DNA from: Actinomycetota bacterium
Lineage (GTDB): Bacteria; Actinomycetota; Geothermincolia; Geothermincolales; RBG-13-55-18
Length of the DNA: 64,000 bases
Direction of reading: 5' to 3'
NCBI GenBank assembly: GCA_030019255.1
Contig: JASEFK010000001.1
Coordinates: 184,367 to 248,366 of the forward strand
Positions 3,849 through 55,315 of the stretch are shown one piece after another; the first letter of the stretch is position 1, and every line of letters begins with the position of its first letter. The notes under the pieces are model-generated. The model did no database searches and had not been told where the DNA came from. It saw only the letters and a program-made list of their open reading frames with translations. The translations under genes and the position numbers were made by a program.

Positions 3849-4394
3849 ATGAGGCTTCTGCAAAACATCCTCGGAGATGATTACCCGGAAGACCAGGCGG
3901 GGTTTACCCTCATAGAGTTATCCATCATCGTGGTTATCCTGGGCATCGTGCTCACCCTGGCGGTCGTCAATTACGCCAATACCAGCAGGTCCATGGCCTT
4001 GAAGGGGGCCCAGAGGCAGGTGGAAGCGGCCCTCACCCGGGCCATGAACGCGGCACGCCAGGAAAATGTCGCTTACCGGTTGATCTTTTATCCTCAGTCG
4101 GACGCTGCCCACCCGAACTCCTACGAGTTCCTTCACCGGGTGGAAAGTGCCGGCAACTGGAACCTGGAGCCGGTGGACAGGTCGGTGAGTGGGGAAGAGG
4201 TCACGGAGGACGCGGGCCATTACTACATAGAGGTTTCCAACGGTGTGAAAATCTTGAACGATACGGCAACGGTCATCGATTTCGTCCCCCGGGGAACCAC
4301 CCAGACCGTTACTCCCGCCACCATCACCCTGGGGCTGGGTGGATCCACCATCAGCGTGGTCCTTGATGCGCAAGGAAGAATAAATCCGCAATAA
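3849..4394 (+). CDS. Type IV pilin / pseudopilin (prepilin-type N-terminal cleavage/methylation domain)
   Basis: 181 aa. N-terminal G-FTLIELSIIVVILGIV is the class III signal (G|FTLIE) followed by a hydrophobic helix. GC is lower than in the flanking genes. Confidence 0.6.
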   Translation: MRLLQNILGDDYPEDQAGFTLIELSIIVVILGIVLTLAVVNYANTSRSMALKGAQRQVEAALTRAMNAARQENVAYRLIFYPQSDAAHPNSYEFLHRVESAGNWNLEPVDRSVSGEEVTEDAGHYYIEVSNGVKILNDTATVIDFVPRGTTQTVTPATITLGLGGSTISVVLDAQGRINPQ

Positions 4395-4398
4395 TGTT

Positions 4399-6792
4399 TT
4401 GCAGGCTTGGAGAGGTGGAGAGTGCGAGATGTGGCTGCGAAGGAAATTGGATAACCAAGAGGGTTTTTCACTGGCCGAGATGCTGGTGGCCGGCCTGATA
4501 ATAGTGGTGGGACTCATCCCCATCATCCGCATGTTCGACGCTTCCTTTTCGGGAATGAGGGCCTTCGAGAAGATGCAGAAGAGCGTGAGCTGCGCCCAGG
4601 CCGCCCTGGAAAAAATTCGCTCCATGCCTTTTTATGAACCCCATAAGGATACCGATGTGAACTTGAATTTCGACATCGACGATCATTTCTGGGGCAGTAG
4701 AAGTCCCATAACCAGCAATCCGGCGGATGGGGAAGGAAAACCGGATTGGAGCGCCGTTCCCGAGGTCACCTACTTCAACTACGGCGGTTTCCCGGGATAC
4801 GAACCCTACCGGGTGACGGTCCAGCTCTCCTATCTCGAGGACGACACGGGCGTGGCGGTGATGAAAAGCGACTGGGGGCCTAAAACGGTGGGGAAAGACC
4901 GGCCCACTAACAGCGACAACCAGGTCATCCACCTACTGTTGGTTAAAGTGAACGTTTACTGGCAGTCGGGGGATGGAGAGGACAGTTACGTGCTGCAGAG
5001 CATCATCACCGACACCGAGGCCATCTACAACATCGGTATATCCAGGATCGTCGTCACCGGGCCGGACTCCATAAGGGATGCTACCAAGCCCAACGCCGCC
5101 GCTCACTGGTCCGATCCCAATGTGAACGTGAACGTGAGGATTGAGGGCTGGGGCTTTGATGACCTGAACGACGCCAACGGAAGAGCCCAGGCCTGGCTGG
5201 TCAGGGACAAGTACGAGGATATCCCCATCACCATCACCTCGTGGACACCCACGGTGCTCGAGGGCTGGACGACCCTTTATACGGGACATAACGAAACGAA
5301 CAATCCGTGGAGGCCCAAGGCGGCCATCGGCTTCTGGTCGGTGAAGGTACGCCAGGAGGGGGTAATCTCCGCCTACCTGTATGAAGGATTCATAGTCCAA
5401 TACCCCAAGCCGGTTATCGACGATTTCGGAAATGATCCCGATTACAGCAAGACCGGCCCCAATTATTGGAATGCGGCCGTGCTGAAGATTAGGGGTGGGC
5501 CTTTCTGCTTCCCGGTGGAATACCCGGCGGTGAGGCTGATCAAGGTGGACAATGAGGGCAACGTCGAACACCAGATTAATGGAACGGTCACCGCGGTAAG
5601 CGCGCCGGATGGGTCCTACGGTTATGCGTCCAGCCCCGCTTGCGAGATCACGGCCACCTTCGACTTTACCGGCGCTCCGCCCGGTGAATATCACATGCAG
5701 GTGGTGAACACCAAGGAACCCACCATGATCGGACACGTGGCCTCGGATCTCTCCAGCGCGGTATACGTGATCGAGGAGGCCATACCCGAGGTATACGACG
5801 TTTACGTCTACGGTACCGGTTCCCACCAGGCGTATAACAACATGGGGAATCCCTGGAGGCTGGTCTTCGAAGGGAAATATTTCAACATGCAGGGGACTCC
5901 CCCGGTGGAGGTATACCTGTGCAGCGACGTGGTCAACGGACAACCTGCCGGGAATTATGTTCAGGGAACCGTTGTGCAGGTCATGAACTATACCTACGTG
6001 ATCGCCGACTTCAACCTCTCCGCCCTGCCGGAGGGCTGGTACAAAGGTTATGTTAAGAACCTGAACAACAACCAGTCCGGATGGACCGTAGGTTCGCCCT
6101 TCCAGGTGGTGGCCTTCAATGCCAGTATAGGCGGGTTTGTGCCCGACAACGGCTACAATTTCTACGAGAACTACTACGACATACCCTGCAAGATCACCGG
6201 GAACGGCTTTTCCGCCACCTCGGGGGTTTCCATCACCGACGGTTCGGTGGAATACAGCCTGGCGGGCGAGTACACCGTCACCAACGATAACGAGATAAGG
6301 GTGAACCTCAACCTCATCGGTTGCGACAACACCCATAACTGGAAGGTGAGAGTATACTTCGGAAGTTATTATATCGAAAAGGAGTTCGACGTCATACTGG
6401 GGCCTGCCAAGATACTCCCCCCCAGCGACACCAAGTATGCCTTAGCCATTTACGCCGAGAGGTGGTATTCAGGTAGCGAATGGCATTATGAGACCACTTC
6501 AACCAGGGCATATGCCTGGAGGAGTTATTGGTATGGGGCCGGTTACGCGACCTTCCGGGTGAGGGGGATGGGATTCCCCATGAATGGGCAAACAAACTTA
6601 AGAGTATGGGGTAGTGGTCTGGACGTAAATGGCAATTTTAATTGCACTTACGATCGGACCAACAAGATTGTACAGATTCAGTCCTCTAGATGGACCATGC
6701 CGGGCGCTACAGGTCTTTACAACATAGAGGTCTATAGGGTTGGCGATACTATTAAGGATACCTACACGGGAAGATGGGAGCTGAGGAGTTAA
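4399..6792 (+). CDS. Large pilin-like protein (prepilin-type N-terminus, ~750-aa aromatic/Asn-rich C-terminal region)
   Basis: 797 aa. N-terminal ...NQEG|FSLAEMLVAGLIIVVGLIPII prepilin motif, possibly starting at ATG 4429. The rest is W/Y/N/G-rich and predicted beta-rich. Lower GC than the flanking genes. Confidence 0.55.
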   Translation: MQAWRGGECEMWLRRKLDNQEGFSLAEMLVAGLIIVVGLIPIIRMFDASFSGMRAFEKMQKSVSCAQAALEKIRSMPFYEPHKDTDVNLNFDIDDHFWGSRSPITSNPADGEGKPDWSAVPEVTYFNYGGFPGYEPYRVTVQLSYLEDDTGVAVMKSDWGPKTVGKDRPTNSDNQVIHLLLVKVNVYWQSGDGEDSYVLQSIITDTEAIYNIGISRIVVTGPDSIRDATKPNAAAHWSDPNVNVNVRIEGWGFDDLNDANGRAQAWLVRDKYEDIPITITSWTPTVLEGWTTLYTGHNETNNPWRPKAAIGFWSVKVRQEGVISAYLYEGFIVQYPKPVIDDFGNDPDYSKTGPNYWNAAVLKIRGGPFCFPVEYPAVRLIKVDNEGNVEHQINGTVTAVSAPDGSYGYASSPACEITATFDFTGAPPGEYHMQVVNTKEPTMIGHVASDLSSAVYVIEEAIPEVYDVYVYGTGSHQAYNNMGNPWRLVFEGKYFNMQGTPPVEVYLCSDVVNGQPAGNYVQGTVVQVMNYTYVIADFNLSALPEGWYKGYVKNLNNNQSGWTVGSPFQVVAFNASIGGFVPDNGYNFYENYYDIPCKITGNGFSATSGVSITDGSVEYSLAGEYTVTNDNEIRVNLNLIGCDNTHNWKVRVYFGSYYIEKEFDVILGPAKILPPSDTKYALAIYAERWYSGSEWHYETTSTRAYAWRSYWYGAGYATFRVRGMGFPMNGQTNLRVWGSGLDVNGNFNCTYDRTNKIVQIQSSRWTMPGATGLYNIEVYRVGDTIKDTYTGRWELRS

Positions 6793-7397
6793 TGGCGGTG
6801 GCAAAAAAAACGCGCAACTTCCGGGAGAGGATGCGGAAAGAACCCGTTCTCCGAATAGTGCCTGGAGAGGCGGGATTTACCCTCGCTGAACTTATGGTGG
6901 TTATCGGCATCCTGATCATCTTCCTCATCGGGGTGGCGGGAATGTTGGAATCCGGCGCCGACAGCTCAACCACCCAGTATGTTCTGGCCCGGATAGAAGA
7001 GGATGCAGGAAAAGTACTGGACACCATGACCCGCCAGATCAGGGTGGCCACGACCATCAATCCCTTCAGCACCAACAGCACCCTTATATTCTCGGGCGAC
7101 CTGGATGGGAGCGGAACTGTTCAGGCCATGGTCTTTACCGTTTCTGGCGGGAAGCTCATGCGGGGCTCCGACCCGAATAACCTCCAAGCATGGGTGGATG
7201 GGGTGGAGAGCATAACCTTTACCTATCATCGATTCAATCCTGTCACCAAGGCGATGGAGGAGATCACCCCGGGAACAGCTGGTTGGAACACCCTCGTGGA
7301 CCGCGTGGATATCGCCATCCGATTCTCTCGCCGGGCGGGAAAGATAAACCTGCAGAGGGACTATACCGGTAGCGTGACCCTGCGCAACAATTTGTGA
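6792..7397 (+). CDS. Pseudopilin / minor pilin (prepilin-type N-terminus)
   Basis: G|FTLAELMVVIGILIIFLIGVAG motif after a basic leader. ATG 6792 overlaps the stop of the previous gene (TAATG). The alternative start is 6774. Confidence 0.55.
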   Translation: MAVAKKTRNFRERMRKEPVLRIVPGEAGFTLAELMVVIGILIIFLIGVAGMLESGADSSTTQYVLARIEEDAGKVLDTMTRQIRVATTINPFSTNSTLIFSGDLDGSGTVQAMVFTVSGGKLMRGSDPNNLQAWVDGVESITFTYHRFNPVTKAMEEITPGTAGWNTLVDRVDIAIRFSRRAGKINLQRDYTGSVTLRNNL

Positions 7398-12034: not shown

Positions 12035-12237
12035 AGCCGCGGAACGACCTCGTTCTCCGGCGTTGTCACGTTGCATGGCTGGGGAGGCGACGAAGCGGAC
12101 CGCGTGGTCCGGGATCGGGCCTCATTGGCTTGTGGCGCCAAACGCCAGGTAGGGTATCCTTCCGGTGGCCTCTACGGGAGCCGGTGGAGTGCCCGCCGAG
12201 TTGTTCGCTTCCCGCGGCGGTGATATGATGAATGAAA

Positions 12238-12272
12238 CCTTTAAATCCAGTCCCGTGAGGCTGGCAAGGGAT
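12238..12272 (+). promoter_or_regulatory. PyrR-binding loop (pyr operon attenuation RNA element)
   Basis: AAUCCAGUCCCGUGAGGCUGGCAAGG matches the conserved PyrR binding-loop consensus (ARUCCNGNGAGGCU...GCAAGG). It lies just upstream of a terminator hairpin and of pyrR. Confidence 0.7.
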
Positions 12273-12287
12273 AGCTGATGATGAAAG

Positions 12288-12326
12288 GCAGCCCTCCTGC
12301 GCCGGCCGCAGGGGGGCTTTTTTGGA
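12288..12326 (+). terminator. Intrinsic terminator (pyr leader attenuator)
   Basis: GC-rich hairpin GCCCTCCTGCGCCGGCCGCAGGGGGGC followed by TTTTTT. Confidence 0.75.
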
Positions 12327-24518: not shown

Positions 24519-24606
24519 GTCGGAGTGGCGGAATCGGTAGACGCGCTAGGTTGAGGGCCTAGTGAGGAGCTTCCTCATGGGGGTTCAAGTCCCCCCTCCG
24601 ACACCA
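24519..24606 (+). tRNA. tRNA-Leu (anticodon GAG), type II with long variable arm, CCA encoded
   Basis: Manual fold. Acceptor GTCGGAG/CTCCGAC. 3-bp D-stem GCG/CGC. Anticodon stem CTAGG/CCTAG with loop TTGAGGG (GAG). 16-nt variable arm. T-arm GGGGG-TTCAAGT-CCCCC. Discriminator A plus CCA. Confidence 0.85.
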
Positions 24607-28352: not shown

Positions 28353-29795
28353 ATGCCTGAACGAGGCGGGAATGGAGTAGGGACGGAGGGAGCCGGAGGG
28401 GAGGAGACTCACCCTCGGGGAGCCAAGGAACTGGCCGGCGGTGTGCTGGAGGACCTCCGGGCGCTGTGGGCCAACCGGGATTTCCGCCGCCTATGGGTGG
28501 GGCAGTCGGTATCCTCCATCGGGGACTGGCTGGCCACCTTCGCTCTCATGGCCTTGGTCTGGAACCGCAGTCGCTCCCCGGCGGCGGTGGCCGGGCTTCT
28601 GGTCCTGCGCATCGTGCCCTCGGCCTTCTCCGGCGCAGTGGCCACTTGGATAAGCGATCGTTGGGACCGCAAGAAGATTCTCATCTACTGCGACGTTTTA
28701 CGCGGGCTTCTCATCATGTGGGTGGCGGTCCTGGATTCCCTGGCCTATCTCTACGTACTCATCTTCTGCATGGAATTCATCACCATCATCTACCTGGCCG
28801 CTAGGGACGCCAGCCTCCCTAACCTGGTGGAGGGGGAAAACCGCCTCACCATGGCCAACTCCATGACCCTGGGAAGTGCTTACGGGTCCATACCCCTGGC
28901 CGCTGCCTTCTTCGCCCTGCTCACGGTGGGAAGCTCTCCCCTCCTGCGCGGCCTGGAGGGGATGGTCTTCTTCTCTGACCACCCTTACGCCTTTTCGCTC
29001 CTGGCCGATGCCCTCACCTTCTTCTTCTCCGCCCTCATGATCAAGCGCATATCCAGGCCCCTCATCATCAGCCGGGAGGAGAAAAAGGAGAAGGAGAAGG
29101 TGGACCTGCGCTCCATGCTCACCTTCGCTTTCCGCAACCGCTTCATGCGCACCCTGACCGCGGCCCTGGCCACCGGCACCCTGGGCGGCGGTTCGCTCTT
29201 CGCCGTAGGGGTGGTCTACGTGCACGAGGTGCTGGGCGGGAACGACACCCAGTTCGGTTTCCTCATGGCCCTCTTCGGGCTGGGGATGCTGGTGGGCATC
29301 GTGGGCCTGCAGTTCCTGGCCCGGGTCAGGGCCAAGTGGTTCATCTTCAAGCTGGGGCTGCTCTGCGCGGGAGGAACGCTGGTCTGGATGTCCCTGATTA
29401 CGGTGATGTTCATGGCCTACCTGGCCGCCCTGGTGTTCGGGGCCGCCTTCTCGGCCATCTTCCTCACCGGCATCACCATGGTCCAGGAGGTCATCGAGGA
29501 CCGGAACCGGGGAAAAGCCTTCGCCGTCTTCCACTCCGTGTCCCGCGTATTCCTGCTGCTGGGGGCGGCGCTAGCCGCGGGCCTGGCGGGCGCGGTGGGC
29601 GAGTTTCGCCTCCACCTGGGGGTCTTCCGCCTTCATGTCTGGGGAACCACCATCGCCATGTTCACCGCTGGAGTGCTAATCGCCTCGGTGGCCTTCCTTC
29701 CTCTTCGACAGAGGCTGGAGGAGAGCGGAAAAGGTATACTTGTCGGGGAGAAGGAACTGGAGGCCGGACCGGGAAGGAGCCTGCCCCGCGCCTAG
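28353..29795 (+). CDS. MFS transporter
   Basis: 480 aa, start uncertain. FRRLWVGQSVSSIGDWL motif and 12-14 TM segments. Confidence 0.75.
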   Translation: MPERGGNGVGTEGAGGEETHPRGAKELAGGVLEDLRALWANRDFRRLWVGQSVSSIGDWLATFALMALVWNRSRSPAAVAGLLVLRIVPSAFSGAVATWISDRWDRKKILIYCDVLRGLLIMWVAVLDSLAYLYVLIFCMEFITIIYLAARDASLPNLVEGENRLTMANSMTLGSAYGSIPLAAAFFALLTVGSSPLLRGLEGMVFFSDHPYAFSLLADALTFFFSALMIKRISRPLIISREEKKEKEKVDLRSMLTFAFRNRFMRTLTAALATGTLGGGSLFAVGVVYVHEVLGGNDTQFGFLMALFGLGMLVGIVGLQFLARVRAKWFIFKLGLLCAGGTLVWMSLITVMFMAYLAALVFGAAFSAIFLTGITMVQEVIEDRNRGKAFAVFHSVSRVFLLLGAALAAGLAGAVGEFRLHLGVFRLHVWGTTIAMFTAGVLIASVAFLPLRQRLEESGKGILVGEKELEAGPGRSLPRA

Positions 29796-30631
29796 AGGAA
29801 GGCCGCCCCCACCACCCCCGGGCCGGTGTGGCATCCCATGACCGGGGTGAACTGGGAAACGATGATCTCTCCCCTCGTCTCCGCCCCTTCCCGTATCATG
29901 TCCGCCAGCTGGTCCGCTTCCTCCGGGGCGGAAGCGTGGAAGACGGCGACGCGCAGGGGTCCCCGCCGCTCGTAGAACTCCCTAACCCGGGCGGCGATGA
30001 AGCGGCGGGCCTTGGCTGGTGAGCGCTTCCTGGAAACCAGCACGGCATCGCCGTCCTTGAAGCGGAACACGGGCTTGATGGAGAGCGCCTCGGCGGCCAG
30101 GGCGGTGATGGCCTTGACCCGCCCGCTCTTGCGCAGGAATTCGAAGGTGGAGATGTAGGCGAAGAGCTCGGCGGAGGCGCAGAGTTCTTGTCCTAGGCGC
30201 AGGCATTCCTCCAGCGGCTCGCCATGGCGGGCAGCGCGGGCGACCTCCAGGACGACCAGGCCCTGCGCCATGGCCGCGGTGCGGGAATCCAGCACCTCCA
30301 CCCTGGCATCATGAAAGGTCTCCGCCGCCAGGCGGGCGTTGTTGTAAGTAGCGCTCATGGTGGAGGAGATGGTCACTACGAGGATCCCGTCCGATCTCGA
30401 GGAAAGCTCGGCGAAGGCCTCGAGGAAAACACCCGGGGATACGGCGGAGGTGCTGGCCGGCTGGGATAGGCGGGGGAGAAGCTCGTAGAATTCCTGCGGG
30501 GTTATGTCCACGCCGTCCCGGTAGGAGGTGCCGTCTAGCTGGAGGGTGAAGGGGAGAACGGTGATGCCCAGTTCCTCCGCCATGGAGGCGGGGATGCAGG
30601 TCTGGCTATCTGTCACCACGGCCACGGTCAT
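29792..30631 (-). CDS. DegV family fatty-acid binding protein (FakB-like)
   Basis: 279 aa. VAVVTDSQTCIP N-terminus and the DegV fold pattern. Confidence 0.8.
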   Translation of the reverse strand: MTVAVVTDSQTCIPASMAEELGITVLPFTLQLDGTSYRDGVDITPQEFYELLPRLSQPASTSAVSPGVFLEAFAELSSRSDGILVVTISSTMSATYNNARLAAETFHDARVEVLDSRTAAMAQGLVVLEVARAARHGEPLEECLRLGQELCASAELFAYISTFEFLRKSGRVKAITALAAEALSIKPVFRFKDGDAVLVSRKRSPAKARRFIAARVREFYERRGPLRVAVFHASAPEEADQLADMIREGAETRGEIIVSQFTPVMGCHTGPGVVGAAFL

Positions 30632-30872
30632 TTTGCGCCGCCTTCCTAGGGATAACGTCGGTTTGACGGTCTATAATACCTTAACAGACGAATAGCGGAC
30701 GCGGGAAGGCGAAAGGGGAAACCCGACCGGGAGCGGTGGGTTTGAGATAAGGCTCAAGTCGAGCGCAGGGCCGTGATGGAACGTGAAAGCTCCTGGCGGC
30801 CGGATGGCGATACCGGAGGGAACGCCGGGGGTGCGGCGGTTCGCCGGGTACCGGGGAGAGGGAGGTAAGACG

Positions 30873-31931
30873 ATGAGGCGGTGTGCGGGCTGTGGGGTGC
30901 CCGTCCTGGTAGGCAAGGAGCTGACCTGGCGGGAGAACGGGGTCGTCATCCAGACCAAGGATCCCGACCACCGTATGCTTTTCTACGAGTCGGAGAACCT
31001 GGACCAGCTCTTTCAGGGCATTGAGGAGATCATCGGGGTGCCCATCGGGCATATCGTCATCGAGAGCAAACGCCGGGAGGTCAGGGAATACGTGGAGAAG
31101 CTCATGCCCGCCCCGGTGAGGAAGATGGCCCGCTACGTGGGCCTTAAGGCCATGATACGGCGGCTCAGCGTCACCGGCATGGCCTACGGCTACGGCAACG
31201 TGCGCCTTTCGGGAAAGAGGTTGCGCTTCCGGGACGACGATTACGTGACCATGTTGATAAGCAACCCGCACTCCCTGTACTTCTTCTGCGGGGAGGGACT
31301 GGGGGCCTGGGAAGCTATCGACGGGCGCGAGAGCTGGGTGCGCTACGAGGAAGTGGCGCCCAACTCCTATGAAATCTCCATCAACATCGCCTCCCATCCC
31401 GTGGAGCTCGCGGAACGGCTGCAGCCGCCGCGCTACGCTTACCGGCCGGGGAAGGTGGACCTGCGAAGATGCCCTTCATGCGGGGTTCCCGCCGCGGTGG
31501 CCTCCTGCCGCTGGGATTCCATGACGGGGACCATCACCGATCCCTCCACGGGCAGGAGGATGGCCGTATTCGGTCCTGCTGGCCTGGAAGCGGTTTTCCT
31601 GGACCTGGAATCCGAGCTGGGAGAGGCCATCCCGGACACCATCATCGAGGCCCAGAGGAGGTTCACCGTGCGCACCCTGCGCCGGGAGGAGCTGGAGGGC
31701 GGCACCGAGGGCATCAGGGAGATGCTGGCCGTCCGTGGGCTGGGACTCCTCGAGGAGATCCGCTTGGGGGAGGAGGGATTGAGTCTCGTCCTGCACAACG
31801 CCTGCGTTCCCCTGCTCATGGCGGGGCTTTTCCAGGGAGCTTACGAGGTCATGGCCGGAAGGGAGGGCAGCCGGGTCGCCTGGAGCATGTCCGGCGAGGG
31901 GGACCTCGAGGTGCGGGTCAGTCCCGCCTGA
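30873..31931 (+). CDS. Zinc-ribbon / V4R-like domain protein with internal tandem duplication (paralog A)
   Basis: 353 aa from ATG 30873 (GGGAGGTAAG RBS). Two modules, each beginning RRC-x2-CGVP. Each module ends in a V4R-like segment (FFCGEGLGAWEAI..., NACVPLLMAGLFQGAYEV...). Paralogous to 52817-53977. Confidence 0.5.
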   Translation: MRRCAGCGVPVLVGKELTWRENGVVIQTKDPDHRMLFYESENLDQLFQGIEEIIGVPIGHIVIESKRREVREYVEKLMPAPVRKMARYVGLKAMIRRLSVTGMAYGYGNVRLSGKRLRFRDDDYVTMLISNPHSLYFFCGEGLGAWEAIDGRESWVRYEEVAPNSYEISINIASHPVELAERLQPPRYAYRPGKVDLRRCPSCGVPAAVASCRWDSMTGTITDPSTGRRMAVFGPAGLEAVFLDLESELGEAIPDTIIEAQRRFTVRTLRREELEGGTEGIREMLAVRGLGLLEEIRLGEEGLSLVLHNACVPLLMAGLFQGAYEVMAGREGSRVAWSMSGEGDLEVRVSPA

Positions 31932-32197: not shown

Positions 32198-32545
32198 ATG
32201 AGCGAGCACGAGGACCGTTCGCCGCTGGTGCTGAAGGTGGTCCTCCGGCAGGCGCTGGGTCGTCTGCGGGAGGAAGATTCCTCCCTGGCCCAGCTGGAGG
32301 CCCTGGCCGGGAACCTGGGATGGGAGGAGGTTTCCGGCCGGCTGGAGGAGGCCAGGAAGGATCTGGCGGAGGCGCAAAAGGACTTGCAGGAGGCGGTGGA
32401 GGCCGCCGTCCGCCTGCAGGTCCTGTCGGCCTATTCTCATCTACATGCCCACAACCACGAACATCCGGAGGGAACGGAAGGGGAACACAGTCACCCGCAC
32501 AGCCACGTCCACCAACACCCGCACGACCATCCCCACCGCCCGTGA
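32198..32545 (+). CDS. Small coiled-coil protein with His-rich C-terminal tail (putative metal binding)
   Basis: 115 aa. C-terminus HLHAHNHEHPEGTEGEHSHPHSHVHQHPHDHPH. Confidence 0.4.
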   Translation: MSEHEDRSPLVLKVVLRQALGRLREEDSSLAQLEALAGNLGWEEVSGRLEEARKDLAEAQKDLQEAVEAAVRLQVLSAYSHLHAHNHEHPEGTEGEHSHPHSHVHQHPHDHPHRP

Positions 32546-44877: not shown

Positions 44878-45060
44878 GAAGGTGAGATTGACGCTCGGCG
44901 AACGAGGGTTATAATTTATCCAGCATTTCATGCCGCCGCGGAAGCATGAGGGCGGCGCAGGGAAATGGCGATGAAGCTCGCCTTTTGCCCCCTTAAAGGG
45001 GCTGATAGCTTCTACCCAAGAGGTAGGAGCTCTTCTTTTTTAGGGAAGGTGAGAAGAGGG

Positions 45061-46842
45061 ATGAGTTCGTACAAGGAGATCCGGGATTCGATCCTCGCCA
45101 TTATCGATGATGTGAAATTTGGCGCGGAATTTGCTGCTTCCCGCACTCTTAGCGAGGGATTGGAAGGGGTAAGGCGGAAGCTGAAGGCGGAGAATTTTCA
45201 CGTGGTGGTCATGGGCCAGTTCAAACGAGGGAAGACCACCTTCATCAACGGCCTTTTGGGAGCGGAAATCCTGCCGAGCTCGGTGGTGCCCCTCACGTCC
45301 ATTAACACCATTCTTCGTTACGGGGAGAACATCAGGGCCACCGTTCATTATCTCGACGGCCGCAGCGAGGATATACCGGTGACCGGATTGCCCGCTTTGG
45401 TGACCGAAAGGGGAAACCCCGAGAACCGTTTAGGGGTGAAATACGTGGAGGTGTTCTACCCTTCGATGTTTTTGAAGGACGGGGTATGTCTGGTGGACAC
45501 TCCGGGAACCGGATCCACCTATCTCCACAACGACGAGACCGCATATTCTTTCCTCCAGCACGCGGACGCGGTCATCTTCATGCTTTCGGCCGACCCTCCC
45601 GTGAGCCGATCGGAGCTGGATTTTCTTCACCGCATAAGGAGCAACGTCCGGAAGGTCTTCTTCGTTCAGAACAAGGTCGATTACCTGGAGCGGGAGGATT
45701 TGGAGGAATCCCTGGCCTTCAACCGGCAGGTCATCTCGGAAGCCGTGGGTCTTGACGGCCTGGAGATCCATCCCCTGTCCGCGAAAATGGCCCTCAAGGC
45801 GGCCGTGACGGGTGACGGCTCGCTTTTGGAACGGAGCGGCCTGCCGGATTTTCTGGCCGCGCTCGAGGATTTTTTGATGAAAGAAAAGGGTAGGCTGCTG
45901 CTGGAATCCAGCGCCAGGATGCTCCAGAGGCTCCTGGACGACGAATACGCGTCCTTGGAGCTGGAAATGGCGCTTATCGGTCATCCCAGAGAGGAACTCC
46001 TGAGGAAGGTGGCCTCCTTCCGCGAGCAAATGGAATTGATACGGAGGGAGCGGGAGGAAGTCCGTTTCCTCATTCGGGGTGATCACGAACGCCTGGTGAA
46101 GGAGATGCTGGACGAGGAGATCGAGCGTTTCAAGAAAGAGGAGACGGCGCCCCTGCTACAGCGCTTCGACGCCTTTTTCGAGGAGAACGCTGGGCTTTCC
46201 GGTTCCTCCCTTAACCAGGCCCTGGCTGATTTCATCCGCGAGGAGATCAGGGAGACCTTCCTCTCCTGGAGGCAAATACAGGAGGAGCGGCTATCCGATG
46301 CCTTCCGTGCCATGGCGAGGATGTACATGGACAGGGCCAACGCCATCGCTAACCGCATTCTGGAAATAGCTGGAGACCTCTTCGGCCTGTTGCTTCCCCG
46401 CCTGGAGACGGAAATAGTTCTGAGTGATGAAGGGGAATTCTGGTTCAAAATGGGAGATTCCCTCACCGACCTGGAGATCATCTTCGGGGCCATCTCCAGG
46501 ATGTTGCCAAGAGGCCTTTCCCGCCGCCTGATAAGGAGGAAACAGAGGGCGGAATTGCTGACCCTTTTCGATCGCCACTGCGGGAGGGTCCGTTATGATT
46601 TTTTCCTGCGCCTCCAGAAAAGCGTCAACGCACTTTCCTGCCGGGTGGATGAGGTTATCCAGGGAACGCTGGAGGCCATCGAGATTGGGATAGAGAAGGC
46701 CTTGCGGGAGATGGAAGAGGGGGCTGGAAGGATCCTTGAAGCGCAGGAAGAGCTGCGGGATAGACAGGGGGTGCTGGCGGCGGCCCGGGAGAGGCTGAAA
46801 AAGGTCATGAAGGACGTTGCGGAAGAGCCCCGCGCCCTTTAG
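45061..46842 (+). CDS. Dynamin-family GTPase (bacterial dynamin-like protein)
   Basis: About 593 aa from ATG 45061. G1 GQFKRGKTT. G3 DTPG. G4 NKVD. Long helical stalk/paddle region. Noticeably lower GC than the surrounding core. Confidence 0.75.
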   Translation: MSSYKEIRDSILAIIDDVKFGAEFAASRTLSEGLEGVRRKLKAENFHVVVMGQFKRGKTTFINGLLGAEILPSSVVPLTSINTILRYGENIRATVHYLDGRSEDIPVTGLPALVTERGNPENRLGVKYVEVFYPSMFLKDGVCLVDTPGTGSTYLHNDETAYSFLQHADAVIFMLSADPPVSRSELDFLHRIRSNVRKVFFVQNKVDYLEREDLEESLAFNRQVISEAVGLDGLEIHPLSAKMALKAAVTGDGSLLERSGLPDFLAALEDFLMKEKGRLLLESSARMLQRLLDDEYASLELEMALIGHPREELLRKVASFREQMELIRREREEVRFLIRGDHERLVKEMLDEEIERFKKEETAPLLQRFDAFFEENAGLSGSSLNQALADFIREEIRETFLSWRQIQEERLSDAFRAMARMYMDRANAIANRILEIAGDLFGLLLPRLETEIVLSDEGEFWFKMGDSLTDLEIIFGAISRMLPRGLSRRLIRRKQRAELLTLFDRHCGRVRYDFFLRLQKSVNALSCRVDEVIQGTLEAIEIGIEKALREMEEGAGRILEAQEELRDRQGVLAAARERLKKVMKDVAEEPRAL

Positions 46843-48984: not shown

Positions 48985-49650
48985 ATGTCAGTTCCAAAGA
49001 AGAGGATGAAGGCTCCAGAACGCCGCGAGCACATCCTACGCAGCGCCGCCAAGGTGTTCTCACGAAAGGGGTACCGCCTCTCCTCGGTCTCGGACATCGT
49101 GGAGGAGTCCTCCATCGGCCGGGGGACCTTCTATCTCTATTTCGAATCCAAGCGGGACATATTCAGGGAGCTCATCGAAGCCTACTTCCAGGGATACGCG
49201 GAGGTGTTGGAGGAGAACCACCGTCGGCTCGTCGAGGCCCTCTCCGGAAAGGGGAAGGTCTTGCGCACCTGGAGGGACAACATGGCCCGGGTTCTGCGCT
49301 ACCACAGCGAGAACCCCGACCTCACCAGCATCGTCTACCGGGAAGCGCTGGGCAAGGACGAGGATTTCTCGGACCGCGTGGAGGAACTCTCCATCCTGGC
49401 CAGGCAGAGGCTCCGGGAGGAGTTCCAGCTCATGTACCGGAAGGGTATGATGCGGGAATGCGACGTCGAAGTGGTGACTTCCATAGTCATGGGCTCCACC
49501 GTCTACTTGATCATGGAGCACCTCCTCAAGGGCAACGGGATGGACGTTGATGAACTGGCGGACACCATCGTGGAGTATCACATAAGGGCCCTCATACCGG
49601 CGGAAGGGGACGTGGGGCGCGCCCTGCGCAGCGCCCTGGGGTCTCCCTGA
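48985..49650 (+). CDS. TetR/AcrR family transcriptional regulator
   Basis: 221 aa. N-terminal HTH ILRSAAKVFSRKGYRLSSVSDIVEESSIGRGTFYLYF. Confidence 0.85.
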   Translation: MSVPKKRMKAPERREHILRSAAKVFSRKGYRLSSVSDIVEESSIGRGTFYLYFESKRDIFRELIEAYFQGYAEVLEENHRRLVEALSGKGKVLRTWRDNMARVLRYHSENPDLTSIVYREALGKDEDFSDRVEELSILARQRLREEFQLMYRKGMMRECDVEVVTSIVMGSTVYLIMEHLLKGNGMDVDELADTIVEYHIRALIPAEGDVGRALRSALGSP

Positions 49651-49838
49651 GGCCCTGCCGGAAGAAGGCGTTTTACGGTAAGGTCAAGGGAAAGGTCTGG
49701 GTGTTTCTCCGAGAGGAGGTGGGTAAAGGGAAGGGACGGAGAAGGATGCGGAACCGGGAAAGGGAGACGGTCAAGGAGTGTCCACCGCTCTCCCGCCTCC
49801 GAACCGAGACAGTCTTGGCAGCCGGAAAGAAGTAAGGG

Positions 49839-50957
49839 GTGAAGCGTATGGTTTCGTTCGAGTTGGACGACGAACAGAAATTGGTCCAGGAAACCGTATC
49901 CTCCTTCGCCGCCGACCTCATGGAGCCAGCCATGCGGGAAAGCGACGAGTCGGGGGAGATACCCCAGGAGGTTATCGCCAAGGGATGGGAACTGGGCCTT
50001 CTGGGAGGATGCATCCCCGAAGAATATGAGGGATTCGGGGAGGAGCTTTCCGCCCTGACCGGGGTCATCGCCCTGGAGGAGCTGGGATGGGGCGACCTGT
50101 CCATGGCCATGCATCTCATGGCCCCCTCCATGCTGGTCATCTCCGTGCTGGACCAGGGGACCGAGGCGCAGAAGAAGCAGTACCTTCCGGCCTTCTGCGG
50201 GGAGGAGTACAAGGCGGCCGCCAGCGCGCTGGTGGAGCCTTACTACAACTTCTGCCCCTCGGCCATGCGGGCGGTGGCGGAGAGGGACGGTGACGAGTAC
50301 GTCATCAACGGTAAGAAGTGTCTGGTCCCCCTGGCCAAGGAATCGGACCACATGCTGGTCTTCGCTGCCACCAATCCCGGGATGGGCTTTTCCGGTGTGG
50401 ATGGCTTCATCGTCCCCGTGGGGACCAAGGGGGTGGAGATCGGCGACCGGGAGAAGAACATGGGGATCAAGGCCCTGGCCACCTACCCGGTGAACTTCAA
50501 GGACTGCCGGGTGCCCTTGGTCTGCCGGCTGGGCGAGGAGGAGGGCTGCGATTTCCTCCGCCTTCTATCCCGCTCCCGCCTGGCCCTGGCCGCCCTGGCG
50601 GTGGGGATGAGCCGCCGGGCCCTGGAGCACTCCCGGGACTACGCCACCCAGCGCATCGCCTTCGGGGAGCCCATCGGTTCCCGCCAGGCCATCGCCTTCA
50701 TGATCGCCGAGATGGCCATCGAGGTGGACGCCACGCGCCTCCTGGTCTGGGAGGCCGCCTGGCGCTGCGATAAGGGCATGGACTTCGAGAAGGAAGCCGC
50801 CCTGGCCAAGAATTACGCGGCGGACATGGCCATGATGGTGTGCGACCGCGGGGTGCAGATCATGGGCGGGCACGGCTACATCCGGGACAATCCCGTGGAG
50901 CTGTGGTTCCGCAACGCGCGCGGTTTCGCCACCTTCGAGGGCATGGTCATGGTATAA
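49839..50957 (+). CDS. Acyl-CoA dehydrogenase family protein
   Basis: 372 aa. ACAD N/M/C domain pattern (FGEPIGSRQAIAFMIAEMA, YIRDNPVELWFRNAR). Confidence 0.85.
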   Translation: MKRMVSFELDDEQKLVQETVSSFAADLMEPAMRESDESGEIPQEVIAKGWELGLLGGCIPEEYEGFGEELSALTGVIALEELGWGDLSMAMHLMAPSMLVISVLDQGTEAQKKQYLPAFCGEEYKAAASALVEPYYNFCPSAMRAVAERDGDEYVINGKKCLVPLAKESDHMLVFAATNPGMGFSGVDGFIVPVGTKGVEIGDREKNMGIKALATYPVNFKDCRVPLVCRLGEEEGCDFLRLLSRSRLALAALAVGMSRRALEHSRDYATQRIAFGEPIGSRQAIAFMIAEMAIEVDATRLLVWEAAWRCDKGMDFEKEAALAKNYAADMAMMVCDRGVQIMGGHGYIRDNPVELWFRNARGFATFEGMVMV

Positions 50958-50961
50958 GGAG

Positions 50962-52227
50962 GTGGGCAAGATGACCATAGATTTCGAGCTTTCGCCGCGC
51001 ATCAAGGCCACCAAGAACATGATCCACATGTTCGCCGAGTCGGCTATCCGACCCATCGCCCGCTATTACGACGAAAACGAGCACGAGAAACCCTGGGACC
51101 TCCTGAACATGGTCCAGAAGTTCATGGGCGGGGGCATGGCCGGCGCCTTCGGCGCGGGAGGCGAGGAGAAGAAGGCCGAGGGCGAGGAAGCCAAGGAGAA
51201 GAAGCCCCGGGAGACCAACCTGGCGGGAGCGGTGACCATCGAGGAGATCTTCTGGGGTGACGCAGGTATAGCCCTCTCCTTCCCCGGCCCGGGACTGGGA
51301 GGGGCCGCGGTGCAGGCCAGTGGCACCCCGGAGCAGAAGGAGAAGTTCCTGGCCCGCTTCCGGGGCGACAAGCCGGTGTGGGGAGCCATGGCCATCACCG
51401 AGCCGGAGGCCGGTTCGGATACCGCCAACATCAAGACCACCGCGGTCCTGGATGGGGACGAGTGGGTGCTCAACGGGGAGAAGATCTTCGTCACCTCGGG
51501 AAAGAGCGCCCTGGAGGACTCGGAGGGCTTCGTGGTGGTCTGGGCCACCGTGGACCGTTCGGCGGGAAGGGCGGGCATCAAGCCCTTCATCGTGGAGCAC
51601 GGCACCCCGGGCATGCAGATCACCAAGATCGAGGACAAGCTGGGCATCCGTTGCTCGGACACCGTGTCCATCTCCTTCATGGACTGCCGCATCCCCAAGG
51701 AGAACATCCTGGGCAGTCCGGAGGTGGTGGACAAGACCAAGACCGAGGGCTTCAAGAAGGTCATGGCCACCTTTGACGCCACCCGTCCCCTGGTGGCGGC
51801 CATGGCCATCGGCGTGGGCCGCGCCGCCCTGGACTTCATCAAGGAGACCCTCAAGGAGGAAGGGGTGGAGCTGCGCTACGGTATCAACCCCCACCGCATG
51901 ACCTCCCTGGAGAGGGACATCATGCAGATGGAGGCCGACCTGAAGGCGGCCCGCCTGCTCACCTGGAGGGCGGTCTGGATGCTGGACAACGGCCTGCGCA
52001 ACGACCTGCAGGCCTCCATGGCCAAGGCCAAGGCGGGCCTCGCGGTCACCCGCATCACCCAGAAGGCGGTGGAGCTCATGGGGCCCCTCGGGTATTCCCG
52101 CGAGTACCTCCTGGAGAAGTGGATGCGCGACTCCAAGATCAACGACATCTTCGAGGGCACCGGCCAGATACAGCTTCTGGTCACCGCCCGGCGCATCCTG
52201 GGCTTCACCCGCGAGCAGCTCAAGTAG
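50962..52227 (+). CDS. Acyl-CoA dehydrogenase family protein (with Lys/Glu-rich insertion)
   Basis: 421 aa. ACAD pattern (GAMAITEPEAGSD, YSREYLLEKWMRDSKINDIFEGTGQIQ). Confidence 0.85.
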   Translation: MGKMTIDFELSPRIKATKNMIHMFAESAIRPIARYYDENEHEKPWDLLNMVQKFMGGGMAGAFGAGGEEKKAEGEEAKEKKPRETNLAGAVTIEEIFWGDAGIALSFPGPGLGGAAVQASGTPEQKEKFLARFRGDKPVWGAMAITEPEAGSDTANIKTTAVLDGDEWVLNGEKIFVTSGKSALEDSEGFVVVWATVDRSAGRAGIKPFIVEHGTPGMQITKIEDKLGIRCSDTVSISFMDCRIPKENILGSPEVVDKTKTEGFKKVMATFDATRPLVAAMAIGVGRAALDFIKETLKEEGVELRYGINPHRMTSLERDIMQMEADLKAARLLTWRAVWMLDNGLRNDLQASMAKAKAGLAVTRITQKAVELMGPLGYSREYLLEKWMRDSKINDIFEGTGQIQLLVTARRILGFTREQLK

Positions 52228-52274: not shown

Positions 52275-52816
52275 TTACCCTCTTATATCCACCGGTGGGA
52301 CCGGCACGGGTTGCGCGGTGTCTCATAACGGCGCTTAGGCCAACGGTCGCGGATATCCGCTCGCGAAGTACATGGACGGGATAGAGGAAATGGCGACTCG
52401 CCACTCATCTCCTTTTCGATTCCGTGATCGGGGGCGAAGGTACGCCGTATGCTTGGTTATGGATTTCGCTTTCCATCTACGGTTAGGCCGTTCGCAGCCG
52501 ATGAACCCAGGGTTCTTCTACCCGCCTCCCCTTTAGTCTCAAGTCTTCAGAACACCTTGACTCAAGTAATAGAACCGAGGTTACTCCTTTCTCCTGACTT
52601 TCCCTTTCGTTTCAAGTCCTTGGTGCCGCCCGACGATGCATTATGGGGACGTGTTAGAATGGTGACGAGGTAGAGATTCGTAAATCCGAAGAGACGGTTT
52701 CATGGTAAGCGGGGCGTTTGGCGGCCTGACCGCCGATGTCCGGAAAGCCGGCATCATGTAAGATGCTGCCGGCGGAAGGGCCTCTCCGGCGCCCGGGAAA
52801 GGCGGAAGTTCGAGGC

Positions 52817-53977
52817 ATGGACCATACGCAAAGCCCGCCCGGGTGGAAGGAAGAGCTTGACCCGGCCGGAGGGGGATACCGGCCCGGAAGGAGGGTGGTG
52901 CGCGCCCGCGGCCTTTCCCTGATGCACCCCTTCCTGCGCCTCTGCCCGGACTGCGGCGTGCCCCTTTCCATATCCCGTAACCATTCCTGGAAGGAGGACG
53001 GCCGCATCCTGAGCCCCGACTCTGCCCAGAGGCTGGTGATCATGGAAAGGCGGGTGGTGGAAGGCATATTGCGCCGGGCGGCGGAGATGTTCGGCGAGGA
53101 AGCCTCAAGGATTCTCACCCGGTGCAAAGCTATGGACGCCTTCCTCTACGTGCGTTCCATCATGACCGGATGGAAAAGGATGGCGGCAAAGGCACCCTTC
53201 GGTGGAAGGCACTTCTACGACCTCCTGTGCGACCAGGCTCGCATACTGGGGATGGCGGATGCCCGGGTGATCTCCTACCGGAAGCGCCGTGAGCTCTTGG
53301 TAGGTTGTACCCAGTGTTACAGCGAGGCCTTTTTCGCGGGAGACGTGCTGGGAGCGGTGCAGGCGGGGGAGGGAAGGGAGGCCGAGGTGACCTTTTGGGA
53401 GGAGAAGGGGGAGAAGAGGTTCGGGGTTACCATCGGGGGGAGGGAAGTTCCCACGCCCGTCCTGCCCACGTTCGAGGAGGATCCCCTGCCGGGTAACATC
53501 GTCTACCGGAGGTGTGAGCGCTGCCGGGCCCCCTTCCCGGTGAGCTTCTTCGCCTGGGACACCGCCCGGGGGCTGGTACTGGATACCCACAACGGGGAGA
53601 CGGTGGCCATGCTGGACACGGCGGGGATGAATGCCGCTTACCTGGAGATAAAGCGGACCCGCCTCCCGGAGCTCGACGAGCTTCTGGCGCGGGAGATAAA
53701 GGAGATGGTGGACCGGGTTCTCCCCCGCCTGGAGTGGAAGAGGCGCGGTCCCGAGGAACGGGTGCGCGACCTCTTCTTTCTGGCCTACCGGGGTATGGGA
53801 AACCCGATTTTCACCCGGGGTTCGGGAAAGTTCCTGGAGGCCCGGGTGGAAAACCCCTTCAACCACCCCATCGTGGCCGGGATCACCGCCTCCTTCCTCT
53901 CCCGCGGCGAGCCCGTCTCCTGGGAATGGGAGAGGAAGGAAAGGGCGGCCCTGGAAGTGCGCGTGAGTTTCCTCTGA
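52817..53977 (+). CDS. Zinc-ribbon / V4R-like domain protein with internal duplication (paralog B)
   Basis: Start uncertain (ATG 52817 or 52922). CPDCGVP and CERCRAP Cys pairs. V4R-like segments (CYSEAFFAGDVLGAVQAGEG...). Same architecture and length as 30873-31931. Ends ...LEVRVSFL versus ...LEVRVSPA. Confidence 0.5.
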   Translation: MDHTQSPPGWKEELDPAGGGYRPGRRVVRARGLSLMHPFLRLCPDCGVPLSISRNHSWKEDGRILSPDSAQRLVIMERRVVEGILRRAAEMFGEEASRILTRCKAMDAFLYVRSIMTGWKRMAAKAPFGGRHFYDLLCDQARILGMADARVISYRKRRELLVGCTQCYSEAFFAGDVLGAVQAGEGREAEVTFWEEKGEKRFGVTIGGREVPTPVLPTFEEDPLPGNIVYRRCERCRAPFPVSFFAWDTARGLVLDTHNGETVAMLDTAGMNAAYLEIKRTRLPELDELLAREIKEMVDRVLPRLEWKRRGPEERVRDLFFLAYRGMGNPIFTRGSGKFLEARVENPFNHPIVAGITASFLSRGEPVSWEWERKERAALEVRVSFL

Positions 53978-54215: not shown

Positions 54216-54617
54216 TCACGTTTCCGCCCCTCCGTTCTTGCCCCGTGGCAGGAGGTCGCCCCACTCCTCCTCCAGGCGTCCCAGGATCTCCCGCACTTCG
54301 CCCCGGATCTCGGACTTGCGCGCCTCCTCGCGCTGCCTCCGCCGCGTCTTGAAGTCCGGATCATGAAAGACGCGGTGGATGAGATCCCGGGCCTCGGGGC
54401 CGCTGAATTCGGGGAGCAGGAAGAGGGCCTGGCGGTCCTCTCCGTCCTCGCGGTTCCATTTCTCCACCGCGATGCCGTAATAACGGCAGAGGATGTTCTT
54501 GGCCTTGATGACCTCGAAGTCGTCCACCCCGAACTCGTAGCCGATGTCTTCGTCGTAGAGGTGGCCCCTCTCGAGGAGCAGGTAGGCAATCCTTTCCGCC
54601 AGCTCGCGAGCGTCCAT
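54216..54617 (-). CDS. Hypothetical protein
   Basis: 133-aa ORF on the same strand as the upstream operon. No recognisable family. Lower GC. Confidence 0.3.
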   Translation of the reverse strand: MDARELAERIAYLLLERGHLYDEDIGYEFGVDDFEVIKAKNILCRYYGIAVEKWNREDGEDRQALFLLPEFSGPEARDLIHRVFHDPDFKTRRRQREEARKSEIRGEVREILGRLEEEWGDLLPRGKNGGAET

Positions 54618-54910: not shown

Positions 54911-55315
54911 TCAATGACGCTGCGAAGAGAGGTTGGTGATATAGGAACGGCTGCCGGTCTCGTTGCGCAGGAACTCGTCGAACTCCTCCTCGGAGACCTT
55001 TACCCCGGAGTGGAGGAAGAGGGTGTAGAGGTAATAGCTCATGTAGGACCATTCCCGGCGGAGCTCCTCGGCTATCCTCTCCCGCTTGCTCTTCACGGGG
55101 ATGAGTCTCTCTCCCTCGTATTCCAGCTCGTTGAGCTTCCTGCGCAGGTCCCGGCAGGTCCGTATGGCGTCCCGGGTCTCGTACTCGAGATCCGTCTTGC
55201 TCATGTTATTGATGTTGCGAATCCAGGGGGGGATGGCGTCGGATGGCGTGCCGTGCTTGTACAGGTTGTAGTATCGCGCCAACTTCTTCAGGACCTCCTC
55301 CGGCACTTCCTCCAT
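54911..55315 (-). CDS. Hypothetical protein (co-transcribed with HCS-like gene, 10-nt gap)
   Basis: 134-aa ORF. Lower GC. No recognisable family. Confidence 0.35.
   Translation of the reverse strand: MEEVPEEVLKKLARYYNLYKHGTPSDAIPPWIRNINNMSKTDLEYETRDAIRTCRDLRRKLNELEYEGERLIPVKSKRERIAEELRREWSYMSYYLYTLFLHSGVKVSEEEFDEFLRNETGSRSYITNLSSQRH

Follow-up and report, generated by a model that had tools for sequence, protein, structure and literature searches.

What do two genes do whose products share the same two-module layout and match no named protein family? The question is raised by a 64,000-nucleotide stretch of the genome of an Actinomycetota bacterium (GenBank assembly GCA_030019255.1, contig JASEFK010000001.1, positions 184,367 to 248,366 of the forward strand), hereafter the window. 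It carries the two genes, A (30873..31931) and B (52817..53977), 20.9 kb apart; all features of the window described below lie on the plus strand unless the minus strand is stated. An earlier note on this DNA had proposed that their products are paralogous zinc-ribbon/V4R-like proteins, each formed by an internal tandem duplication. We found that A and B belong to a lineage-specific family of duplicated proteins whose modules are predicted to share the V4R-type fold, and that the cysteine pairs opening the modules are conserved. These features suggest a pseudo-dimer in a single chain that may bind small hydrophobic metabolites.

Full-length comparison of A and B by BLASTP gave 24% identity over 352 amino acids (E = 7e-24), and the two modules of A matched each other with 24% identity (E = 5e-9). 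Alignments of module 1 and module 2 compared with hhalign gave a probability of 99.1% and an E value of 5.4e-19 over 152 columns. By these sequence comparisons, in which the similarity is far above chance, A and B are true paralogs and each is internally duplicated, and both proposals of the earlier note hold. A search of the window with a family hidden Markov model (HMM; E <= 1e-3) found exactly two copies, A and B. On a 233-kb contig from a relative, the orthologs share about 57% identity with A and B and keep a similar spacing, about 19.6 kb.

The open reading frame (ORF) of gene A coincides with public gene calls, and its start at 30873 was also chosen by independent gene calls on three public contigs. 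Seven nucleotides 5' of the ATG, a GGGAGG Shine-Dalgarno sequence, or ribosome-binding site, can be read at 30860..30865. The note had described a protein of 353 amino acids, a count that includes the stop codon; its coordinates and motifs were right, and the protein has 352 residues. A hypothetical protein of Candidatus Solincola sp., a genus of Actinomycetota in the class Candidatus Geothermincolia, has the same sequence (100% identity). Protein B, the divergent paralog, has 386 amino acids and consists of the two modules preceded by a basic N-terminal extension, residues 1-27 of which are predicted to be disordered in the AlphaFold2 model. Its start at 52817 is plausible because orthologs are about 382 amino acids long and retain the stretch R-x-W-V-R-G-K-G-L-S immediately N-terminal to the first cysteine motif; other candidate ATG codons lie at 52736 and 52919. 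Translation recovered the motifs that had been listed for the pair, CPDCGVP and CERCRAP in B and the C termini ...LEVRVSFL in B and ...LEVRVSPA in A.

To define the family, we searched sequence collections at two levels of clustering. A word-indexed search of 5.8 billion clusters at 90% identity found 238 relatives for A and 69 for B, none of which bears a name other than 'hypothetical'. When 1.84 billion representatives at 50% identity were searched exhaustively with a profile, 550 matched, 242 of them below 1e-30, and nearly all were 340-390 amino acids long and aligned to the profile from end to end. No Pfam or NCBIfam model matched A or B, and source records name the proteins only as hypothetical, which bears out the claim that no function has been assigned. 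A few relatives of B carry a precomputed zinc-finger match, PF18508, at the CxxC site, and a Pfam scan of 40 alignment members gave just sub-threshold zinc-finger matches at these sites. Neither A, B nor the members scanned contained a further Pfam domain, and both proteins end right after module 2. A profile search with module 2 only, aimed at single-module ancestors or V4R-annotated relatives, returned just 10 fragments from the same family. One member of 549 amino acids (P0127) was considered as a domain fusion and rejected, as its tail is low-complexity read-through.

Scanning GTDB with one genome for each species located 22 family loci. The scan was queried with two A-type peptide patterns derived from 20 closer sequences, so that copy numbers are lower bounds. 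Loci with informative titles came from Geothermincolia-type Actinomycetota metagenome-assembled genomes (MAGs; Ca. Solincola, Ca. Geothermincola and Anoxymicrobiaceae), together with one labelled Acidimicrobium ferrooxidans, likewise an actinobacterium; the others were labelled just 'Actinomycetota/Actinobacteria bacterium' or 'uncultured'. Wherever the organism can be identified, the family is thus confined to Geothermincolia-type Actinomycetota. Extra tandem or nearby copies were present in 7 of the 22 loci, and single MAGs carried at least two to four copies, so the description of a lineage-specific expanded family proved apt. According to their record titles, the MAGs came mostly from hot-spring, subsurface and similar habitats. 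The A type is marked by the motifs ESKRR/EAQRR and the B type by RGMGNP/ENPFN, which tell these subfamilies apart, and even very distant members retain both CxxCGLP...W knuckles.

We next asked which fold the modules adopt. The AlphaFold2 model of A, built with the family alignment, had a predicted local distance difference test score (pLDDT) of 90.9 and a predicted template modelling score (pTM) of 0.89; for B, these values were 83.4 and 0.84. Each module begins with a CxxC knuckle followed by a short helix and three strands, continues with four helices and two strands, and ends with a helix and two strands. Module 1 of A (residues 1-172; 30873..31388) is predicted to combine the knuckle and three N-terminal strands with a V4R-type core of five helices and four strands (helices, H, and strands, E: H40-54, H59-77, H80-89, H91-105, E109-116, E124-130, H135-150, E154-162, E165-172), as the fold matches below also indicate. 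The same order of elements recurs in the predicted structures of B and of module 2 of A (residues 197-352; 31461..31928), whose layout is further supported by hhalign and by its secondary structure. The linker between the modules of A (residues 173-196; 31389..31460) is the least confident stretch of the model (pLDDT 66-73) and holds an H175-P176-x-E-L motif that is nearly invariant in the 40-sequence alignment.

The V4R/Bet3 fold is a twisted four-stranded antiparallel sheet with five helices, and its hallmark is a pair of Gly-x3-Gly doublets, both conserved and located in two packing helices (PMC2253512). The models of both A and B contain the five helices and the four strands, and three of the four glycine doublets are intact in A, namely G102xxxG106 and G140xxxG144 in module 1 and G318xxxG322 in module 2; the first doublet of module 2 is reduced to L285xxxG289. 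G106, G144, G289 and G318 are invariant in the alignment. Consistent with this assignment, Foldseek searches of the PDB placed the phenol-sensor domains of DmpR, MopR and PoxR on top (E about 1e-4, probability 1.0, about 185 columns), followed by TRAPP TPC6/Bet3, H-NOX and YslB. A structural comparison giving two values for each relative yielded 9.9 and 12.8 for the PoxR sensory domain (151 residues, root-mean-square deviation 2.6 Å), 10.5 and 12.2 for DmpR, 10.5 and 10.5 for YslB, 9.2 and 9.2 for BcsD, 9.2 and 9.7 for the V4R protein MJ1460, 8.8 and 10.6 for TRAPP subunits, and 7.2 and 7.3 for H-NOX. The longest and best matches were the ligand-binding domains of PoxR and DmpR, with 151-163 aligned residues, and the match extended over the whole domain, N-terminal segment included. 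In the predicted structures, the module therefore resembles a complete XylR/DmpR 'A domain', with its N-terminal strands, rather than a bare V4R domain. The earlier note had confined the V4R likeness to a terminal segment of each module; the likeness stands for fold and GxxxG motif and covers the whole module, and it is invisible to the Pfam HMMs for V4R and XylR_N.

The A domain of XylR, DmpR, MopR and PoxR (PDB 5fru, 6iy8 and 5kbe) is the best structural match of both paralogs, and about 150-165 residues of one module superpose on it, including the strands that precede the V4R core. The two differ in several respects. Sequence identity is 10-14%, the family carries two copies fused in one chain, and the B-linker, AAA+ and helix-turn-helix (HTH) domains that accompany the A domain in these sigma54 activators are all missing from A and B. 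DmpR-type A domains also carry a structural zinc in their C-terminal part, for which the named ligands are C151/E172/C177/C185 in DmpR and C155/C181/C189 in MopR (PMC7264223, PMC9556785), whereas the conserved cysteines of A and B form an N-terminal CxxC in each module. No cysteine or histidine is conserved family-wide in the C-terminal half of either module, and a conserved DmpR-type zinc site is thus absent. Stand-alone V4R proteins such as MJ1460 (COG1719, 'predicted hydrocarbon-binding protein'; PDB 2oso) and YslB (3njc) share the GxxxG doublets and, like A and B, have no output domain. V4R proteins can also be multi-copy, with seven in Ignicoccus (PMC2253512). Unlike A and B, they are single-domain proteins of about 150 amino acids that have neither the CxxC knuckle nor the N-terminal strand extension. 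TRAPP Bet3/TPC6, BcsD and H-NOX belong to other biology (eukaryotic vesicle tethering, cellulose secretion and gas sensing, respectively), and no sequence relationship to them was detected. MsvR, a V4R regulator of methanogens, is reported to have a V4R-type domain with functionally important cysteines (PMC3729527). By contrast with A and B, it has an N-terminal DNA-binding domain, its cysteines lie inside the V4R domain, and it belongs to methanogenic archaea.

Every module opens with C-x2-C-G/R-x-P...W, a single CxxC knuckle. In A, residues 1-10 read MRRCAGCGVP and residues 197-206 read LRRCPSCGVP. Knuckle 1 of A (C4-A-G-C7-G-V-P10; 30882..30902) has invariant or near-invariant C4, C7, G8 and P10 and a pLDDT of about 95, and in knuckle 2 (C200-P-S-C203-G-V-P206; 31470..31490) C200, C203 and P206 never vary across the 40 aligned sequences; both knuckles have a pLDDT above 92. 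The corresponding motifs of B, C43-P-D-C46-G-V-P49 (52943..52963) and C233-E-R-C236-R-A-P239 (53513..53533), are invariant in the B-type alignment. C4, C7, C200 and C203 are the only cysteines or histidines conserved throughout the alignment that covers both the A and the B type: H33 is variable in the A type, H175 and C311, although near-invariant, are missing from B, and the B type bears an additional C164-x2-C167. With one CxxC per module and no other conserved ligand, neither module contains a four-ligand zinc ribbon of its own. All Pfam zinc-ribbon matches in A, B and the 40 members fell under the cut-offs, and there were weak rubrerythrin/rubredoxin-like matches at the CxxC sites. TRASH domains have the spacing C-x2-C-x19-22-C-x3-C, which is absent from A, where the next cysteine after C4/C7 is C139 and those after C200/C203 are C212 and C311. 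The 'zinc ribbon' of the earlier note thus comes down to cysteine pairs that are real and conserved, with no ribbon in either module and no TRASH spacing. As a single CxxC cannot hold a metal, a four-ligand site needs both modules together, or a partner in trans, and the simplest reading of the conservation pattern suggests one Cys4 site common to both modules.

Such a site would require the N-terminal regions of the two modules to meet, and we examined this by mean-field coevolution analysis of 331 sequences (effective number of sequences, Neff, 260). The strongest couplings recovered predicted hairpins (20-26, 292-308 and 335-349), which validates the signal. Inter-module couplings accounted for 42 of the 120 top-ranked pairs. 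Pairs 37-230 (rank 13) and 33-234 (rank 75 of about 60,000), together with 36-231 (rank 1266, weak alone), each sum to 267, the register of an antiparallel strand pair between modules. The helix pairs 51-248 and 54-249 also rank high, which brings the first helices of both modules together. The couplings thus pair strands 30-39 and 228-234 in antiparallel orientation and set helices 40-54 and 235-249 against each other. Close to the knuckles, pairs 14-205, 3-205 and 5-208 reached ranks 12, 79 and 158 of about 60,000. These data suggest pairing between the N-terminal strands of one module and those of the other, and hint at contact between the knuckles. In DmpR, two sensory domains dimerize by intertwining their N-terminal residues 18-45 (PMC7264223), and the interface between the modules of A and B appears to use the same N-terminal regions.

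We propose that A and B are single-chain pseudo-dimers of A-domain/V4R-like modules held by a shared Cys4 clamp, which work as stand-alone binders of small hydrophobic metabolites, either as carriers or as sensors in trans; to us the chances that this reading is right look about even. The two modules of one chain would pack through their N-terminal strands and first helices, much as free A domains dimerize, and the two knuckles together would most likely bind one structural metal, zinc or iron, in a Cys4 site of the rubredoxin or zinc-ribbon type that clamps the modules. Because we detected no output domain, whether DNA-binding, ATPase, kinase or other, the proteins most likely act alone. The V4R pockets would hold small, probably hydrophobic metabolites, and the proteins could serve as a carrier or buffer, or as a sensor acting in trans on a partner protein, with the divergent paralogs of one genome tuned to different ligands. 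For B, our best guess at the most likely ligand is an acyl-CoA or acyl-type metabolite of the adjacent TetR-controlled acyl-CoA dehydrogenase (ACAD) pair described below. On the whole, what the earlier note had observed was confirmed and most of its interpretation stands, apart from the zinc-ribbon wording and the V4R likeness, which holds for fold and motif and covers the entire A-domain-like module.

The neighbours of B suggest a link to acyl-CoA metabolism. A block 5' of B (48985..52227), identified by Pfam matches, consists of a TetR regulator gene (48985..49650) and two adjacent ACAD genes (49839..50957 and 50962..52227). The order TetR-ACAD-ACAD-B is complete at two further loci (L031 and L032), and at a third (L033), where the 5' end is cut, one ACAD gene precedes B; the B orthologs at these three loci are 50-57% identical to B. 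The ACAD pair presumably resembles the heteromeric alpha/beta ACADs of actinobacterial steroid and lipid catabolism. Its second protein has a weak match to the N-terminal domain and a Gly/Glu/Lys-rich insert. On the minus strand 3' of B, 54216..54617 and 54911..55315 are two ORFs of about 133 amino acids that have no Pfam match; small genes (126-133 amino acids) also lie 3' of the B orthologs at L031-L033, before an HMGL-like/aminotransferase pair.

Gene A has different neighbours. A gene of the DegV (fatty-acid-binding) family (29792..30631, minus strand) is divergent from A at a distance of 241 nucleotides, an arrangement found in close relatives only, and genes for PlsY and two MFS transporters are nearby. 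On the 3' side lie a 115-amino-acid His-rich ORF and a gene for a DUF2207 membrane protein, which is kept in six loci, all of them with close A orthologs. The His-rich ORF (32198..32545), directly 3' of A, has no Pfam match and ends in an extremely His-rich tail (YSHLHAHNHEHPEGTEGEHSHPHSHVHQHPHDHPHRP) with 15 histidines. It is called on public contigs of the same species and is missing at locus L004, where the A ortholog is 57% identical. Judged by its composition, its product may be a metal-binding or metal-storage peptide.

Other members were found in a variety of settings. Tandem or near-tandem pairs occur at loci L005, L017, L018 and L029. At L005, a flavodoxin gene lies between two copies (4012-5070 and 6001-7089), and the pair precedes DUF362, ferredoxin-type and HGD-D genes, the last of which is 2-hydroxyacyl-CoA dehydratase/benzoyl-CoA reductase-like. 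The pair at L029, from a different subfamily, lies downstream of a thiolase gene and two ACAD genes. Further members neighbour radical SAM, SCP2/Fe-ADH/AFOR and Liv-type ABC transporter genes. An Amidohydro_2 gene adjoins an A-type member at three loci (L011:6578-7528, L026:6920-7840 and L015:9078-10025, all on the minus strand), in two cases divergently and in one convergently. As the Amidohydro_2 family includes non-oxidative aromatic-acid decarboxylases, this adjacency may be a sign that members of that subfamily bind an aromatic ligand. Clustering of neighbour genes at 30 loci revealed no universal partner; 20 more flanking genes were a mixture of helicase, proteases, glycosidase, tRNA synthetase, homoserine dehydrogenase, Amidohydro_2, CoA ligase and SDR genes, and two distant members likewise lie in unrelated contexts. 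Rfam models identified no RNA element near A or B. Elsewhere in the window, Rfam matched a PyrR-binding RNA element (12234..12326; 55.3 bits versus a gathering score of 54), a tRNA gene (24519..24603) and a fluoride riboswitch (44958..45021) at 34.8 bits, barely above its gathering score of 34. This riboswitch lies at the start of an ORF for a dynamin-family GTPase (44965..46842), an unusual gene for such an element.

Several observations weigh against the proposal of a metabolite-binding pseudo-dimer. Pfam V4R (PF02830) and XylR_N (PF06505) had no match in A, B or the 40 members, for PF02830 even at E <= 1, and a profile search of PDB sequences gave no relevant match and did not recover DmpR, MopR or PoxR; because existing family models give no match, the V4R relationship rests on fold and motif. 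Two of the structural relatives, BcsD and the TRAPP subunits, are scaffolds and not ligand binders. Coupling between the knuckles is modest; set against random inter-module blocks, its maximum falls in the top 1.5% but its mean just in the top 11%, and Neff is smaller than the sequence length. A-type genes have heterogeneous contexts. For B, a gap of 220-590 nucleotides separates the ACAD genes from the B gene, and the linkage may merely reflect the general collinearity of related genomes; given the gap and the collinear region, a functional link between B and the ACAD genes is putative.

These points leave room for other explanations, of which a redox or metal sensor is one. The four knuckle cysteines could form a Zn-thiolate switch, an Fe(Cys)4 site or an Fe-S centre, and oxidation or loss of the metal would then rearrange the modules. 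The two CxxC pairs, as the sole ligand-type residues conserved family-wide, would suit such a role, as would the rubredoxin-type C-x2-C-G knuckle with its weak rubrerythrin/rubredoxin-like matches. The mostly hot-spring and subsurface sources, the presumed anaerobic lifestyle of these organisms and the flavodoxin, ferredoxin-type and DUF362 genes next to some paralogs point the same way. The V4R domain of MsvR is also reported to rely on cysteines for DNA binding that is sensitive to redox state (PMC3729527). However, several divergent paralogs with subfamily-specific surface or pocket motifs fit varied ligands better than one common signal, and the proteins have no output domain to relay it, and we consider this explanation unlikely. 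A scaffold or adaptor, in which the pseudo-dimer is a building block for protein assemblies in the manner of TRAPP Bet3-type subunits or BcsD, would account for those structural matches. The longest and best matches are nevertheless the ligand-binding domains of PoxR and DmpR, no conserved partner gene appeared in about 25 contexts, and a family expanded into many paralogs with variable motifs more typically consists of binders or sensors. A scaffolding role is thus very improbable in our judgement.

We hold a similarly low opinion of a regulator that binds nucleic acid directly, in which paired zinc knuckles with basic flanks would contact DNA or RNA under the control of a V4R effector, with no helix-turn-helix. 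Some members are divergent from a metabolic gene (A from DegV; the members at L011 and L026 from Amidohydro_2), an arrangement common among regulators; in both knuckles of A the residue before the first cysteine is basic (R3 and R199); B is basic (isoelectric point, pI, 9.0), with an N-terminal extension rich in Arg; and the solved structures most similar to A and B come from sensor domains of transcription activators. By contrast, A is acidic (pI 5.8, net charge -5), its module 2 even more so (pI 4.8), and searches turned up neither a known fold nor a Pfam domain for DNA binding. A conventional TetR gene already adjoins B, neighbours vary among paralogs, and the divergent layout is inconsistent. 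A bolder version of the metabolite-binding proposal would combine it with redox sensing. The family would then be an unrecognised type of stand-alone sensor, a pre-dimerized pair of XylR-A-domain/V4R modules with a shared rubredoxin-like Fe/Zn(Cys)4 centre, which combines the binding of two hydrophobic metabolites, possibly different ones, with a redox or metal signal and relays the result in trans to enzymes or regulators. It would form a Geothermincolia-specific layer that replaces one-component regulators for lipid, acyl-CoA or aromatic metabolism. This possibility is a speculative one and, like the plain redox sensor, appears to us unlikely.

The metabolite-binding pseudo-dimer is thus the reading that we favour. 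A family hitherto without a name or a Pfam or NCBIfam model, which counts about 550 clusters at 50% identity and is present in several copies per genome, can now be placed, by fold and motif, in the V4R/Bet3/H-NOX superfamily of hydrophobic-ligand binders. It is a new architecture inside a known superfamily and has no bearing on any long-standing open question. As a fused dimer with one cysteine knuckle in each half, it would represent a compact case of a homodimeric sensor domain fixed in one chain, possibly around a common metal. For the uncultured class Geothermincolia, these proteins are flagged as candidate metabolite sensors or carriers, with B tied by its position to a TetR/ACAD locus.

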